A stretch of DNA of 64,000 nucleotides from Bdellovibrionota bacterium (GTDB lineage Bacteria; Bdellovibrionota_C; UBA2361; OMII01). The stretch lies in NCBI GenBank assembly GCA_044337105.1, contig JBIIOE010000002.1, forward strand, positions 5,511 through 69,510. The letters run 5' to 3'. Shown here in pieces: positions 5,236 to 51,566 of the stretch. The translations under genes were made by a program, and so were the position numbers. Every line of letters begins with the position of its first letter. Position 1 is the stretch's first letter. Under the pieces are notes generated by a model that was given only the letters and a program-made list of their open reading frames with translations, ran no database searches and was not told the origin of the DNA.

Positions 5236-7725
5236 GTGTGTATGAGGTTGTATCTAAAGACGGTCGTGGCACTTTGCCTCGTCACGACCTGCCTTCTTCG
5301 ATCCACGGGTAGGGCGGCAGCACAGGCCGCGTCCTTTACTGTAATGCGGGTGACATCTCTTGCCGATTCCGGAGCAGGAACTCTGCGGGAGTGTGTCTCG
5401 AAGGGATTCCCACGGGTGTGTGTGTTCGAGGTCTCCGGTCGTATCAAATTGTCGAGTGATCTCGTGATTACTCAGCCTGATCTCATAATTGCGGGGCAAA
5501 CCGCTCCGTCGCCCGGAATACTCGTCAGTAATGCCGGAATTAGGGTGAAGAGTCACCATGTTCGCATAGAGCACATCGCCGTTCGCGCGGGAGATGACAA
5601 ATCCGGGCCGGACCCTCGAAGTCGCGACAGTATGAGTATCCAGGGGTCATCGGCTTACGAGGTTAAGCTCAAGAACCTCTCGATATCGTGGGGAGTGGAC
5701 GAGAACTTTTCGACCTACCAGGGTATAAAGAACGTAACGGTAGAGAACTCCATTATCTCTGAGGGGTTGATGTACTCGTTGCATCCGAAGGGGCACCACA
5801 GTATGGGAGCCCTGGTCGGCGAGACAGCACGAAGTGTCATCTTCAGGAACAATCTCTTCGCGGTCAACAATGACCGCAACATACGTTGGAAGTTTGATAC
5901 GACGGGGGCCATGATCAACAACGTCATATACGGATGGGGGGGCACGTCATCGTGGAATACGACGAATCTTTCCGACACCGACGGGGCGAACAAAGCCAAC
6001 GTTTTGGATATCATCGGAAACAGGTATATTCCGGGGCCTCACGGTCTGCAGACGGCGTACGCAGTGTATTCATCCAAAGTCCCGAGCAATTCTAAGATAT
6101 ATCTCGCGGACAATATCGCTTCACGACTCACGAACGTACCGTCTTCCTTTTTGGTGAAGACTCCCAACTTCGGCATCTCGGATGTGATGCCGGTCGCGGA
6201 TGCGTATGAGTATGTTTTGGCCAACGCAGGTAGTCGGCCATGGGATCGCAACGCCGATGACATTCGTGTGATCTCGGGAGTCAAAGCTCGAACGCTGAAG
6301 CTCCGCAACTCTGTAGGCGCTTGGCCTGCATATGAGGTTAACCGCAAGCCGGTGGAGATACCGGATGGAGCGGTGGGGCTCGATCGAATCAACTCAGTCC
6401 TCGCATCGTGCGAAAAATCTTCTGGTTCGACAGTTGAAGCAACGTCGACACCTCCCGTAGTGGCGACAGCCACTCCGCGACCACCGAGCGCTCCGACGCA
6501 GGTCGCTACACCGGTTGTGGCACCGGTAGCAACGCTAGTGCCCTCAACGCCTCCGACAGGGAGTCCGAGCGCACCAGGGATATCTCGCGGCCCTTCTGCG
6601 GCGCGAGCTTATACGGTGGTCAAGGTTACATCGCTTGCGGATGCAGGACAGGGAACGCTGCGGGACTGCGTGGAGAAGCCGTTTCCCCGAGTGTGCGTGT
6701 TCGAGGTTTCTGGTGGTATCAAACTGACCCGGAATCTAGTCGTCGACCAACCCAACCTCGTAGTAGCGGGACAGACAGCGCCTTCTCCAGGGATTGTGTT
6801 GACTAATGCGGGAATTGTGGTCAGGAGTCACGACGTACGAGTCGAGCACCTGAGTGTGCGTAGCGGAGATGCTCCTGATGGGCCAGCGCCGGCGTCTCGG
6901 CGCAGCATCAGCGTCCGGGGCTCTTTAGCGCACGACGTAAGGTTTAAGAACCTCTCAGTTTCGTGGGCAGTGGCTGAGAATATACAGACGGCAGGGCCAG
7001 TAAAGAATGTGGTGTTCGAGAACTGTATCATCTCAGAGGCTCTACACCGTTCGATACATCCCAAAGGAGCTCACAGCATGGGAGTTTCGGTAAATCAGAG
7101 GGCTCGAGGGGTGCGCTTTGTCGGGAATCTTTTGGCTGCTAATGGAGACCGTAACATTAGCTGGCAGTACGATACTCGTGGCGAGATGATCAACAACGTC
7201 ATCTACGGATGGGGAAATGCTAGTTCGCGGAATACGACCAATATCTCCGATCCGAGCAATGCGGGTAGAGCGACAGTGCTGGATGCCATCGGAAATGTCT
7301 TTCTTGCGGGTCCGCAAGGGATGAGTAGGCCATACGCCTTCTATTCGGCAAGCACTCCGAGGGGATCAAAGATCTTCCTGAGTGACAACATCGCGCCACG
7401 ACTTACCAACATAGGGTCAAAGTATCGGGTCAGGCGGCGAAGCTTTGCGGGAGCGACCGCAGCGCCGGCATCGACAACTTTGGAGTCGGTGCTCCGAAGT
7501 GCCGGAGCTCGTCCGTGGGATCGCAATCCGGATGACGCTAGGGTGATAGAAGGGGTCAGGTCACGCTCTCTGCGAATACGCAATAGGGTAGGGGCATGGC
7601 CTCTGTATGCCAGAAACGGGCGCAGCATCCAGATGGCAGAGGCGTTGATTACGCAGGAGCGTCTCGATCGGGCGCTACCGCTCTTCGAAGTGCAAATGGG
7701 TGCTCCCACGTTGCCCGCTTTTTGA
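5236..7725 (+). CDS. secreted protein with two tandem pectate-lyase-like right-handed beta-helix domains joined by a Pro/Thr-rich linker
   Basis: Signal peptide. Each half (aa ~30-400 and ~455-829) carries 'DSMSIQGSS..VKLKNLSISWGVDEN' (compare PL1 'D..I.....NVWIDH.S.S..D') and 'DRNIRWKFD..GAMINNVIYGWG' (PL1 'R.P..R.G...NN.Y'). The two halves are about 70% identical. Confidence 0.6.
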   Translation: MCMRLYLKTVVALCLVTTCLLRSTGRAAAQAASFTVMRVTSLADSGAGTLRECVSKGFPRVCVFEVSGRIKLSSDLVITQPDLIIAGQTAPSPGILVSNAGIRVKSHHVRIEHIAVRAGDDKSGPDPRSRDSMSIQGSSAYEVKLKNLSISWGVDENFSTYQGIKNVTVENSIISEGLMYSLHPKGHHSMGALVGETARSVIFRNNLFAVNNDRNIRWKFDTTGAMINNVIYGWGGTSSWNTTNLSDTDGANKANVLDIIGNRYIPGPHGLQTAYAVYSSKVPSNSKIYLADNIASRLTNVPSSFLVKTPNFGISDVMPVADAYEYVLANAGSRPWDRNADDIRVISGVKARTLKLRNSVGAWPAYEVNRKPVEIPDGAVGLDRINSVLASCEKSSGSTVEATSTPPVVATATPRPPSAPTQVATPVVAPVATLVPSTPPTGSPSAPGISRGPSAARAYTVVKVTSLADAGQGTLRDCVEKPFPRVCVFEVSGGIKLTRNLVVDQPNLVVAGQTAPSPGIVLTNAGIVVRSHDVRVEHLSVRSGDAPDGPAPASRRSISVRGSLAHDVRFKNLSVSWAVAENIQTAGPVKNVVFENCIISEALHRSIHPKGAHSMGVSVNQRARGVRFVGNLLAANGDRNISWQYDTRGEMINNVIYGWGNASSRNTTNISDPSNAGRATVLDAIGNVFLAGPQGMSRPYAFYSASTPRGSKIFLSDNIAPRLTNIGSKYRVRRRSFAGATAAPASTTLESVLRSAGARPWDRNPDDARVIEGVRSRSLRIRNRVGAWPLYARNGRSIQMAEALITQERLDRALPLFEVQMGAPTLPAF

Positions 7726-13262: not shown

Positions 13263-13433
13263 ATCACCTCCGTATACGACGGTTGCTCAATAGCTTTAGA
13301 CCGTAACAGAGGGGCATGTTTCGCCCGTATGATACGGGTTCGGTGGTATGGACATTGAGAGTGTCCGAAGTCGAAAAAGAACGGACTCGAGAAGAGGCGA
13401 GAGATCGGTGAATACGCTCGTCATCGTACTAAC

Positions 13434-13502
13434 CTATAGTGATGTTGAGCAAAAGCCTTGCCGGTTTTACTGGTACGGACTTTTGCACATCGCTATAGCG
13501 TT
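13434..13502. repeat. hairpin repeat, family 2, copy 2 (hairpin-1 module only)
   Basis: CTATAGTGATGT...ACATCGCTATAG stem with loop GAGCAAAAGCCTTGCCGGTTTTACTGGTACGGACTTTTGC. Near-identical to 21059..21122. Confidence 0.7.
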
Positions 13503-13675
13503 CTCTCGCTTGCCCAGGGGGTAGTCGTTGGCTGAGGAGTCCTTATCACAGAGAGTCCGGAGAGTGGGCGGAAATGCCCCGATTCCGGCAATGGTGCTTG
13601 GTCCAATCTGGAACCGAGATGCTCCGGGAAAAAGATCTCACAAGGAGAATGGCGAGAGCAGCGAGGAGATGTTGA

Positions 13676-20694: not shown

Positions 20695-20711
20695 ACAGAG
20701 AGGAAAATTCT

Positions 20712-20945
20712 ATGACGACAGGAAAGGTAAAGATAACCATCAAAAATAACGGTCCTTTGCGTGTAGAGGGAGGCGAGTTCGAGATCTGCGACGCTTCAGG
20801 AAAGACCTTTGATCTCGGCGGTCGCGCGGCTGTTTCGATCTGTCGCTGCGGGCATTCGCAGAAGCAGCCGTTTTGCGACGGCTCGCACGGTCAGTGTGGC
20901 TTTTGTTCAGAGGTAGCTGCGTACGATCTGCCTCCAAAGGCCTGA
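20712..20945 (+). CDS. CDGSH iron-sulfur domain protein
   Basis: 'CRCGHSQKQPFCDGSHGQCG' matches the CDGSH [2Fe-2S] motif. Begins 18 nt after the valS stop. Confidence 0.85.
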   Translation: MTTGKVKITIKNNGPLRVEGGEFEICDASGKTFDLGGRAAVSICRCGHSQKQPFCDGSHGQCGFCSEVAAYDLPPKA

Positions 20946-20976
20946 AAACAGGTGACTGCGCCTTTGTTGGGTGTGT

Positions 20977-21122
20977 ATAGCGTTCACCAAAAGTCCGTAG
21001 CGAGATCACGACTTTTGGAGAACGCTATCGATTCGCGGATGCGAATCAAAACAACAACCTATAGTGATGTACAGCAAAAGCCTTGCCAGTTTTACTGGCA
21101 CGGACTTTTGCACATCGCTATA
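20977..21122. repeat. hairpin repeat, family 2, copy 1 (three stacked hairpins)
   Basis: The first hairpin is 20977..21028, a 19-bp stem ATAGCGTTCaCCAAAAGTC/GACTTTTGGaGAACGCTAT. A 7-bp hairpin GATTCGC-GGAT-GCGAATC follows. The third hairpin is 21059..21122, with the same TATAGTGATGT/ACATCGCTATA module as copy 2. Confidence 0.7.
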
Positions 21123-21614
21123 GACCCAGTAAAGGCGCCCGCTCCGTTCTTGAGTACGGCAGTCGTCCATGTTACATGGATATGGTTTGGGGCGTAGTTC
21201 CCCTCAAATTTGGGTCTCTCGCACTTCTCTGGCGAGCTTGTGGAGTACTCGAGAGAGTCTCTGCATGAGTGACGCTACGTACCTGCAAATTACGACTTTA
21301 GGCAGTATCTAGTCCCGCCTGTTAGAGGCTTAATCTCAGCGGATCTGTTTCCTGTTCTTTTACATCGCCGCATCGCCGTATGACCTGCGATTGGCTTCTG
21401 TAGTGGGTATGTACAAGTCCACCTGATTCATCTTTCGTGCTGACGAATTGTCGGCAGAAAAGAGGATCGGGGAGGAAGAGAGCTTATAAGGTTTTTTGAA
21501 CCTCCTGCGTCAGAGCACTTTACGTTGCCTGTGTGCGCTCCCTCGTTCGTCTTTTGGGGTGAACAGGGGAGCGCACATTGGATGCGTGTGTTTTTTCGCT
21601 AGAGGAGACCAATA

Positions 21615-22118
21615 ATGAGCCAAATAACAGAGCTCGTGAGGATTGATTTTGAGAAGGCGGCGGATGAATACCTCGCAAGCGAGGAGTTCCGGACAGTTTT
21701 CGAGCGAATCAAATCCTGGAGAGAAGAGGTGGCGGTACTTGCCACCAATCCTCCAAATCACATAGGTGATTTTGAAGACGGCACGATGCACATCGTGCTA
21801 GGGCAGCAAAATGTTGATGCAACGTTGAGTCGGCATGCGGATTCAGCCAACTCAGATTCTTCCTTTGCAATAATCAAGCAGGGGAGATTCCACCAGATCG
21901 TTGAAGCCTTGATAAACTTGAAAGGAGAAAGCCAGCGCGAAGCTGCTATGGCCTTTTACGTCCGTGCCACCAATGGGGCCTTGGTGAGTTCCACCGAGCA
22001 ATGGAAGCGAGTCGCAGGCAAATGTGGGAGCAACTATCCTGCAACCCTTGAGAACCCGATGTACCGTCTCGTTTGCGAGCGTATATTACGTGCGTTCTTA
22101 GAGCATGGTTGGGTATAA
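21615..22118 (+). CDS. hypothetical protein in a low-GC islet
   Basis: 167-aa ORF at about 50% GC (surroundings about 58-60%), bracketed by family-2 repeat copies. No domain recognised. Confidence 0.4.
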   Translation: MSQITELVRIDFEKAADEYLASEEFRTVFERIKSWREEVAVLATNPPNHIGDFEDGTMHIVLGQQNVDATLSRHADSANSDSSFAIIKQGRFHQIVEALINLKGESQREAAMAFYVRATNGALVSSTEQWKRVAGKCGSNYPATLENPMYRLVCERILRAFLEHGWV

Positions 22119-22217
22119 TCCAGCCGGCTTCTTGAATCGTTGATACCCCGAGCAGCACAGTGAGGTTAGGAAGAGATCCAAAAGCTCTCTCCTCCTGACC
22201 TCCATTTTTTGGCCCCT

Positions 22218-22270
22218 AGAGCGTTCTCCAAAGTTCGTAGCGAGATTACGACTTTTGCACATCTCTATAG
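22218..22270. repeat. hairpin repeat, family 2, copy 3 (deletion chimera of hairpin-2 and hairpin-1 ends)
   Basis: AGAGCGTTCTCCAAAGTTCGTAGCGAGATTACGACTTTTG is joined directly to CACATCTCTATAG. The breakpoint is in GACTTTTG, which both modules share. Confidence 0.6.
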
Positions 22271-24683: not shown

Positions 24684-24699
24684 TCAAGAAAACAGAGAC

Positions 24700-24790
24700 G
24701 CAAGAAGTGAAGCAAAACCTACCCGCAGCGAGAAAGTGAAGGCTGGGTTGCTCTATTCGCTTTCGTAGCAGGGAGGCTCTTGCCTGGTAC
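24700..24790 (+). repeat. family-1 inverted-repeat element, short (ends-only) derivative, copy C
   Basis: GAAGCAAAACCTACCCGCAGCGAGAAAGTGAAGGCTGGGTTGC ... TTCGCTTTCGTAGCAGGGAGGCTCTTGCC. It matches both arms of the full-length copies but lacks the about 100-bp core. Confidence 0.7.
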
Positions 24791-24861
24791 GGTACCATAT
24801 GAATCCGCACTGAGCCACCTGTTGGGAGGGGCTTTGCCTTGCTGCCCTGGGTGTAGCGGTC

Positions 24862-35387: not shown

Positions 35388-35450
35388 ATCCAGGGAAGCG
35401 AGGCACAACCTACCCGTAGCAGGAAAGGGTTTTGCCTCGCTCACCTAGGT
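35388..35450 (+). repeat. family-1 inverted-repeat element, minimal hairpin derivative, copy D
   Basis: CCAGGGAAGCGAGGCACAACCTACCCGTAGCAGGAAAGGGTTTTGCCTCGCTCACCTAGG lies between the convergent stops of 34823..35383 and mltA. The two ends pair directly. Confidence 0.7.
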
Positions 35451-41146: not shown

Positions 41147-41338
41147 CCCCTAGGGAAGCGAGGCAACCCCCCCCTGCTACGAAAGCGGATCTTGGGTTGC
41201 TCTCCGACTTTCGCGATGTGGAAAAATCCTCAGTGTATCGCAGCGGATACACCTGCGGATTTTCCACATCGAGAAAATCGAATATCACCCAACCTCCACT
41301 TTCTCGCTACGGGTAGGTTTTGCTTCGCTTCCCAAGCT
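41147..41338 (-). repeat. family-1 inverted-repeat element, full-length copy B (opposite orientation to copy A)
   Basis: The reverse complement aligns along about 190 bp with 519..710, including the central imperfect palindrome TGGAAAAATCC..CAGCGGATACACCTGCGGATTTTCCA. It starts 4 nt after the RRM gene stop. Confidence 0.8.
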
Positions 41339-50349: not shown

Positions 50350-50686
50350 AGAGCGTACCTCCGTAATGTGAGCGAGTATTGCACGGGAGGCGGTTGAGCC
50401 GGAAGTGCCATGAAGTCGGTAGGCTTGGACAGATGTAGAGAGCAGGGGAGTGTAGAACCTTACGCGGCCGTGGGTGCTGCCTCTGTTTACCAGAAATCCA
50501 CATGAGGAGGCTCATTTCGTGCGCAGTGGCCCTCGCAGTAGAGCTGGGCTTGGCTCCGCTTTCCGAGGTGACTCCTCTCATGTCGACAGGCGGCAGTTGT
50601 TGATATCTCCGTGCTCCATGTCCGACATCCACGTGTCAGAAGATGTCGGCAATCGCTTCAACGGATAATGCTCTGGAGATTTCATT

Positions 50687-51442: not shown

Positions 51443-51459
51443 CTAAGCCAGGCAAAGCC

Positions 51460-51566
51460 GGGGCGAAGCGAGGACATAGAGCCTTCGTCGCGCGTGTTTC
51501 TATCAGGAAGCGAGGCGAGGCCTCTACTGCCGCAGCAGGGAGGGGTTTTGCCCTGCTTCCATAAGG
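51460..51566. repeat. family-1 inverted-repeat element, degenerate copy E
   Basis: GGGGCGAAGCGAGGACATAG...GGAAGCGAGGCGAGG...GCAGCAGGGAGGGGTTTTGCCCTGCTTCC retains the family end motifs. Intergenic, between the SRPBCC gene and tlyA. Confidence 0.55.

Follow-up and report, generated by a model that had tools for sequence, protein, structure and literature searches.

Bacterial MITEs such as the Correia and RUP elements are 100-200 bp long, have inverted-repeat ends and TA termini, and form long stem-loops (PMC2229807). Elements of the Correia/NEMIS group occur as units of 107 and 155 bp with ends of ~24-26 bp; they carry a terminal TA, duplicate their target and form stem-loops in transcripts, and the transposase that mobilises them was not named in a review published in 2007 (PMC2229807). 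RUP of Streptococcus pneumoniae is a ~107-bp non-coding, intergenic MITE that targets TA and is often located within other mobile elements, and its movement has been attributed to the transposase of an IS630 element, IS630-Spn1 (PMC2229807). In behaviour, Correia/NEMIS and RUP are the closest known systems to the hairpin repeats analyzed here, which are present in a 64,000-nt stretch of Bdellovibrionota DNA that we refer to as the window.

We estimate the probability at roughly 80% that these hairpin repeats are a family of TA-targeting MITEs, consisting of a non-coding 143-bp mobile element with imperfect 23-bp terminal inverted repeats. The copies have inverted ends and a duplicated TA, they are numerous and dispersed, and many of them are decayed. 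Movement would depend on a DDE transposase that is encoded elsewhere and acts in trans, binding both ends of the element, excising it and pasting it into a TA. Each end would pair with an internal inverted copy of itself, giving two long hairpins that flank a short central one, on either strand or in a transcript. The family is new, and its kind, a TA-targeting MITE, is ordinary and well known. Our literature search found no description of MITEs in Bdellovibrio-like bacteria, and the end sequences were encountered only in unrelated primers.

The original prediction had placed repeats at 13434..13502, 20977..21122 and 22218..22270. Sequence inspection, repeat detection and nhmmer all confirmed that repeats are present there, and in the 64 kb the family profile (nhmmer) matches these three places only. 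Repeat detection in the window connected the sites through a 68-nt pair showing 94% identity (repeat D6; 13431-13498 versus 21056-21123) and a 39-nt pair showing 85% identity (20990-21028 versus 22230-22268). It also revealed inverted repeats, of which I14 links both ends of the 20976-21123 block and I20 links separate sites. Counts of the end motifs in the window are 2, 3 and 5, whereas dinucleotide shuffles predict 0.00, 0.00 and 0.46. The window contains one intact insertion and two dead copies.

The intact insertion is flanked by the two copies of a duplicated TA. The left copy (20976..20977, plus strand) follows from the net insertion of 145 nt relative to paralogous empty sites described below, and the right copy (21121..21122, plus strand) is followed by G21123, which belongs to the flank and gives the preferred target TA-G. 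Between them lies the intact 143-nt core TAGCG...CGCTA (20978..21120, plus strand; nhmmer E = 9.5e-52), whose identity to the consensus of the related genome JBKCMS01 is 0.953. The left terminal inverted repeat, TAGCGTTCACCAAAAGTCCGTAG, occupies 20978..21000 on the plus strand, as indicated by the inverted repeats I14 and I20 and by the family consensus. The right one (reverse complement TAGCGATGTGCAAAAGTCCGTGC) was identified by inverted-repeat detection and the end-motif scan at 21098..21120 on the minus strand. Only spurious ORFs cross the core, which carries no gene.

Folding of the 148 nt recovered the three hairpins that had been described before, to none of which a strand is assigned. 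Predicted hairpin 1 (20977..21028) is made up of the left end and its internal inverted copy, and no part of the family varies more than the loop of this hairpin. Hairpin 2 (21030..21047), the central palindrome GATTCGC-GGAT-GCGAATC, is conserved more strongly than any other segment of the family. Predicted hairpin 3 (21059..21123) is made up of the right end and its internal inverted copy, and contains at 21084-21100 a very conserved inner palindrome, TGCCAGT-TTT-ACTGGCA. The plus strand of the 148-nt unit folds into these three hairpins with -71.9 kcal/mol (z = -12.8), and an equally stable fold is predicted for the opposite strand (-73.0 kcal/mol, z = -9.8). The earlier description of three stacked modules does not hold, however, as 20976-21123 is a single 148-nt unit that is found full-length in other genomes.

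The first of the two dead copies (13431..13498, plus strand; repeat D6, 94%) is truncated at its 5' side and corresponds to consensus ~81-148, that is, hairpin 3 plus 3-4 nt of the linker; nhmmer aligned it to profile positions 77-148 (E = 2e-19). Other loci also contain truncated copies of this kind, which break at various positions. The truncated copy shares its TATAG with a stub of a tandem second unit, TATAGCGTTCTC, which comprises the first 12 nt of that unit (13494..13505, plus strand) and whose remainder has since been lost. Thus, the near-identical copy of the third module claimed near 13434 is a genuine repeat (94%), but it consists of a 5'-truncated unit plus a tandem stub. In the second dead copy (22217..22270, plus strand; nhmmer E = 3e-6), consensus 1-41 is joined to 136-148. 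What had been interpreted as a recombined chimera of hairpin ends is instead an internal deletion across the 8-bp direct repeats GACTTTTG, typical of slippage, and a comparable two-ended deletion derivative is present at positions 267-339 of locus L051.

A small polymorphism was noticed at this second dead copy. The patch 22206-22230 (25 nt), which spans the deleted copy's left arm and 12 nt of adjoining unique sequence, contains 4 substitutions and 1 indel, and these are the only differences across ~39 kb between the window and contigs that represent the same population in other samples. The alternative allele is common to contigs L081 and L082. A short recombination tract and palindrome-associated repair are candidates for the origin of this variation.

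The intact copy lies downstream of the gene encoding a CDGSH protein. Judging from the reconstructed empty site, the element inserted into the loop of a 3' hairpin that already existed there, of which the left 15-bp arm is now at 20958..20972 (plus strand) and the right arm, disrupted by the element, at 21124..21138 (plus strand). Removal of the element together with one TA restores a 15-bp stem with the 6-nt loop GUGUAG (-27.8 kcal/mol, z = -3.8), which begins 13 nt past the CDGSH stop codon. This hairpin is not followed by a T-run and hence is not a canonical intrinsic terminator. The splitting of the hairpin could alter the 3' end of the CDGSH transcript. A preference for hairpin loops as targets was considered as well and was rejected, since TA sites taken at random fold as well as the reconstructed empty sites.

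The region beyond the element, 21124-21614, is a stretch of ~490 nt without an ORF that extends to a gene encoding a 167-aa protein. It is closed by a long hairpin at ~21511-21595, for which only weak, miRNA-like Rfam matches were obtained (E 0.1-0.9), and at 21571-21587 a stem with a T-run resembles a terminator. The region could contain an unannotated small RNA or a leader.

The limits of the mobile unit were established by comparing filled with empty sites. The flanks of 53 full copies are unrelated beyond TATAG...CTATAG. For each copy, the left and right flanks were sought adjacent to each other in the fetched DNA; the empty sites found in this way are paralogous, being uninterrupted members of host repeat families, and not orthologous. 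The cleanest filled site, L051, reads CATGAAA-TA-[element]-TA-TGCGGGCTAG, and its ~30 uninterrupted paralogues read CATGAAA-TA-TGCGGG/TCCGGG-CTAG. At L016, L003 and L060, the filled site is longer than an empty paralogue by exactly 145 nt in each case. The TA is therefore duplicated in four of the five empty-site comparisons (L051, L016, L003 and L060), and the fifth (L023) is off by 3 nt. Because the net gain is 145 nt, the mobile unit comprises 143 nt (TAGCG...CRCTA) plus the duplicated TA, and the final G of CTATAG belongs to the flank. Indeed, the base after the right TA at L051, L003 and L060 is T, A and A, respectively, which is host sequence. With empty sites 2 nt shorter than such a model requires, TATAG can be neither a 5-bp duplication nor a fixed target.

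Solo insertions, of which we analyzed 68, are flanked by TA in 66-68 cases and by otherwise unrelated sequences. G follows the right TA in 52 of them (76%), A in 10 and T in 6, and the left TA is preceded by C in 25 (37%), by T in 20, by A in 18 and by G in 5. The target context is thus roughly Y-TA-R, with an asymmetric preference.

In the family consensus, the terminal 23 nt are TAGCGTTCTCCAAAAGTCCGTAG, and those of the opposite end, read on the other strand, are TAGTGACGTGCAAAAGTCCGTGC. Hand comparison showed that the two ends match at 16 of the 23 positions, including a perfect 11-nt core, CAAAAGTCCGT. The two outermost arms share this core exactly, and their own pairing partners lack an exact copy of it. 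That the outer arms resemble each other more than their partners fits selection on the ends as putative double-stranded binding sites.

We then determined how widely the family is distributed. One genome per species was scanned with a degenerate 20-nt end motif, TATAGCGWTSWSCAAAAGTC, which resulted in at least 80 loci. Among the 80 loci listed, 71 are from a single MAG, JBKCMS01 (labelled "Pseudomonadota bacterium"), and 8 are from five MAGs labelled Bdellovibrionota or Bdellovibrionales; the remaining one, from an unrelated Lishizhenia MAG, is a chance match. BLAST of the window against the listed loci showed that the whole 20976-21123 block recurs at 93-96% identity, with 62 matches in these first 80 loci covering the full 148 nt, and the family consensus is nearly invariant. 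For JBKCMS01 we estimate ~125 units in 468 kb of tiles, so that the existence of further genomic copies, which the original prediction had proposed to check, is confirmed with well over 100 copies in related genomes. The family has undergone a burst in JBKCMS01, which represents an uncultured freshwater bacterium. A scan of freshwater metagenomes yielded 36 contigs with copies of 81-98% identity. Many contigs end inside the element, in keeping with a repeat at which assemblies break. No copies were found in the plasmid, phage and viral-contig collections searched; the lone viral match is in AT-rich coding DNA, lacks the surrounding element and was discarded as a chance match.

Syntenic genes of the window and JBKCMS01, encoding a HerA-like ATPase and phosphate-transport functions, are 67-71% identical at the DNA level, and this divergence indicates that the window genome is a different organism from JBKCMS01. 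Despite the ~70% identity of the genes, the element is ~94-95% identical between the two, and this near-identity across diverged genomes implies either that the family was exchanged recently or that its master copy is under strong constraint. In four other assemblies, the contigs that encode the same proteins as the window are identical or nearly identical to it, and both of those reaching the 20976 site contain the whole element. Orthologous empty sites were not found, as all contigs encoding the same CDGSH protein are from the same population and already contain the element. In addition, a metagenome search with the neighbouring 167-aa protein gave no relatives, and intergenic DNA could not be aligned with the syntenic regions of JBKCMS01 because of their divergence or rearrangement.

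The copies behave as mobile DNA. According to crude gene calls, 57 of 62 copies are located outside ORFs of at least 100 aa. When the placement of 31 copies was determined, 13 were found between divergent and 8 between convergent genes, and 4 and 6 were between co-directional genes in the same and the opposite sense, respectively; the orientation of the copies is unrelated to that of the neighbouring genes. Truncated or deleted copies number 29 and have scattered breakpoints, and copies are present in or beside other MITE-like and repeat families. The proposal of a REP-like family was therefore right in that the repeat is dispersed, mostly intergenic, palindrome-rich, non-coding and present in >100 copies in related genomes, but not with respect to the mechanism, given the 23-nt inverted ends and the TA duplication.

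Several other repeat families were observed along the way. JBKCMS01 contains several further MITE-like families, at L070 136-331, L051 200-266 and many other loci, and some of these families are shorter. In the fetched loci, >40 ends were counted for one of them, which terminates in ...CGACGCAGTTTCATGAAATATGCGGGCTAG, and the element is often placed at the terminal CTAG of this family. Another JBKCMS01 family, a repeat of ~220 nt, is located to the left of the L007 copy. The window itself contains a second dispersed family, GAAGCGAGGCAAAACCTACC...CCTAGG, at 519-710, 24698-24851, 35389-35449, 41149-41336, 50534-50568 and 51444-51565. Its arms are up to 118 nt long and show 86% complementarity (571-688 versus 41169-41286). 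This family looks like another MITE and is presumably the "first family" of the original prediction.

To analyze conservation within the element, 31 copies from genomes other than JBKCMS01 were scored by segment for mismatches to the consensus. The segments differ strongly (heterogeneity p ~1e-31, the 31 copies not being independent). The lowest mismatch levels were obtained for hairpin 2 (2.9%) and for consensus 99-124, the inner part of hairpin 3 (3.6%), followed by the right end (6.9%), the linker (10.6%), the 3' arm of hairpin 1 (13.8%), the loop of hairpin 1 (17.3%) and the outer 5' arm of hairpin 3 (19.4%). The interior palindromes are thus 2-6 times more conserved than the element ends, and they are nearly invariant among genomes with genes of only ~70% DNA identity. 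In addition, the two conserved segments are depleted of singleton changes among 52 young JBKCMS01 copies (8 in 45 nt versus 38 in 79 nt; p = 0.008, post hoc).

A conserved interior is not predicted for a purely end-dependent selfish MITE and counts against one. In the simplest reading, the interior palindromes could be a protein-binding or DNA-bending site that is required for joining the ends of this short element, a role also proposed for the IHF site in Correia elements. We consider it unlikely that the element is more than a selfish MITE, whether by virtue of such a bending or binding site or of a function co-opted by the host. The co-opted function could be that of an RNA hairpin with GGA exposed in the loop, or that of a methylation site, as GANTC occurs twice.

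The same conservation bears on another explanation, namely, that the repeats are structured small RNA genes or cis-regulatory RNA modules, in which case the hairpins would be the product and the copies its paralogues. The very stable fold (z = -12.8), the strong conservation of hairpin 2 and inner hairpin 3 across genomes, and the depletion of singletons there in young copies (8 in 45 nt versus 38 in 79 nt) would agree with it, but the reverse strand folds as well as the forward one and no promoter-like or terminator-like site is present within the unit. The screening for Rfam 15 families did not identify any at the gathering threshold in the window, nor any with E <= 1 in the element and its surroundings (20700-21700). 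G-U columns (23) and A-C columns (19) are about equally frequent, so that neither strand is favoured, and the orientation of the copies looks random, with 13 of 31 lying between divergent genes.

The original prediction had also seen compensatory swaps between copies. These turned out to be two independent one-sided transitions in the 13431 copy, each of which makes a G-T pair, and the remaining changes lie in an unpaired bulge; both transitions do give G-U on the plus strand, which counts in favour of an RNA. Covariation proved to be marginal: the proposed pairs are formed in 92.4% of the cells, compared with 91.4% after shuffling for 54 copies and with 91.9% for the 30 more diverged copies. 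In the latter set, double-sided changes were found in 11 cells versus 4.7 in shuffled data, which is weak evidence of maintained pairing. Together with the TA duplication, the insertion into other repeats and the random truncations, which point to mobile DNA, these results render it very unlikely that the repeats are RNA genes with paralogues, as had been suggested.

Some copies are arranged in tandem, and these arrays are relevant for a third explanation. In the loci and the window, 23 tandem junctions (including the stub at 13494) are of the form CRCTATAGCG (CRCTATAGCGTTCT), with a period of 143 nt and a shared TATAG. Three element-to-element junctions have a period of 145 nt, CACTATATAGCG in L112 and CACTCTATAGCG in L098 and L071. 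Re-insertion into a flanking TA, in the preferred TA-G context, predicts 145 nt, but the 143-nt period is commoner. An IS200/IS605-derived palindrome-associated element, moved by a single-strand HUH transposase into a fixed short target and without true duplication, would explain the exact 143-nt period of the 23 junctions. Moreover, both ends of the element are hairpins, and the TATAG at both ends can be read as target plus cleavage site. However, the net insertion is 145 and not 143 nt in four comparisons, the empty sites hold TA or TAG rather than TATAG, and no conserved target of 4-5 nt extends leftward beyond the TA. The outermost arms also resemble each other more than their own partners, as expected for double-stranded transposase-binding sites. 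We regard an IS200/IS605 origin as very unlikely. For a TA-targeting MITE, the 143-nt period could result from the loss of TA from a (TA)3 run, or from unequal exchange between flanking TATAG pentamers.

The least probable explanation, a REP/REPIN-type extragenic palindrome spread by a RAYT, is extremely unlikely: the repeats are extragenic, palindromic and high-copy, and their paired hairpins with a linker loosely resemble a REPIN doublet, but the element duplicates its TA target, whereas REPs and REPINs to our knowledge are RAYT-dependent and make no target duplication, its hairpins (52 and 65 nt) are longer than REP palindromes (20-40 nt), its conserved 23-nt ends behave as inverted repeats, and no Y1 transposase is present among the annotated window genes.

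Returning to the TA-targeting MITE, we searched for the transposase that might mobilise it. Duplication of TA is a hallmark of IS630/Tc1-mariner elements, and some IS5-group elements duplicate TA within YTAR. The TA duplication of the element presumably points to IS630/Tc1-mariner or to the TA-duplicating branch of IS5. With respect to IS630/Tc1-mariner, both a strict TA target and a 2-bp TA duplication were found. No autonomous element with the ends of the family was detected in ~0.9 Mb of fetched DNA or in the plasmid and phage collections, no long repeats were found among the loci, and the annotated window genes do not include a transposase. MAGs usually lack assembled insertion sequences. 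Matches to the ends only were rejected as parents, as they are truncated copies beside ordinary genes.

Two transposase sequences present in the fetched loci were evaluated as parents and rejected. At L090 898-2202, a 434-aa ORF beside a truncated copy encodes a DruA-like N-terminal region followed by DDE_Tnp_1_assoc and DDE_Tnp_1. This is a transposase of the IS4/ISAs1 type, and such transposases make longer duplications. The sole sequence with an IS630 signature (PPYSPNLNLIE) is located at L050 ~6070-6540 on the minus strand, where the C-terminal remnant of an IS630-family transposase (…FLPPYSPNLNLIERFW…) lies within inverted repeats of ~50 nt. The ends of this remnant are unrelated to those of the element, and it looks like a deletion derivative that is becoming a MITE itself.

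The analysis defines a TA-targeting MITE family with clear boundaries in this lineage, supported by clean pairs of filled and empty sites. With regard to annotation, it explains the three odd hairpin clusters in the window, and it also explains the frequent assembly breaks in related freshwater Bdellovibrionota-like genomes. Notable features of the family are that its interior is conserved, that its copies are near-identical between genomes that have diverged, and that its transposase is missing.

Compared with known systems, the element shares with REP, BIME and REPIN sequences that these are abundant extragenic palindromes, sometimes paired with a linker, but it differs from them by its TA duplication and 23-nt inverted ends. 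Like RUP, it inserts at TA and lands in other repeat families. RUP, however, shows no sequence similarity to the element and has a candidate parent IS with matching ends, whereas none was found for the element.

The comparison with Correia elements involves both likenesses and differences. The interiors are unrelated, the hosts are freshwater Bdellovibrionota-labelled MAGs here and Neisseria in the case of Correia, and the ends of the element pair with an adjacent internal copy and not with the other end. On the other hand, the size class is similar (143 bp here versus 107/155 bp), and so are the inverted-repeat ends, the terminal TA with duplication of the target and the long stem-loops (PMC2229807). 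No transposase is named for Correia in the 2007 review (PMC2229807), and none was found here. The ends also look alike: those of Correia, TATAGTGGATTAACAAAAACCGGTACGG (PMC5039591), and those of the element, TATAGTGACGTGCAAAAGTCCGTGCC, can both be written as TATAGYG ... CAAAA, with TATAG(T/C)G shared. When the ends were aligned, however, the similarity did not exceed chance: comparison with shuffles gave p = 0.009-0.14 for variants of the CAAAA type and no support for the other two, and we do not claim membership of the Correia family. As a long shot, the resemblance could reflect a shared transposase family. Correia elements have a central IHF-binding site and a hairpin that is cleaved by RNase III. 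Finally, the conserved central segment of the element parallels the central IHF site of Correia.
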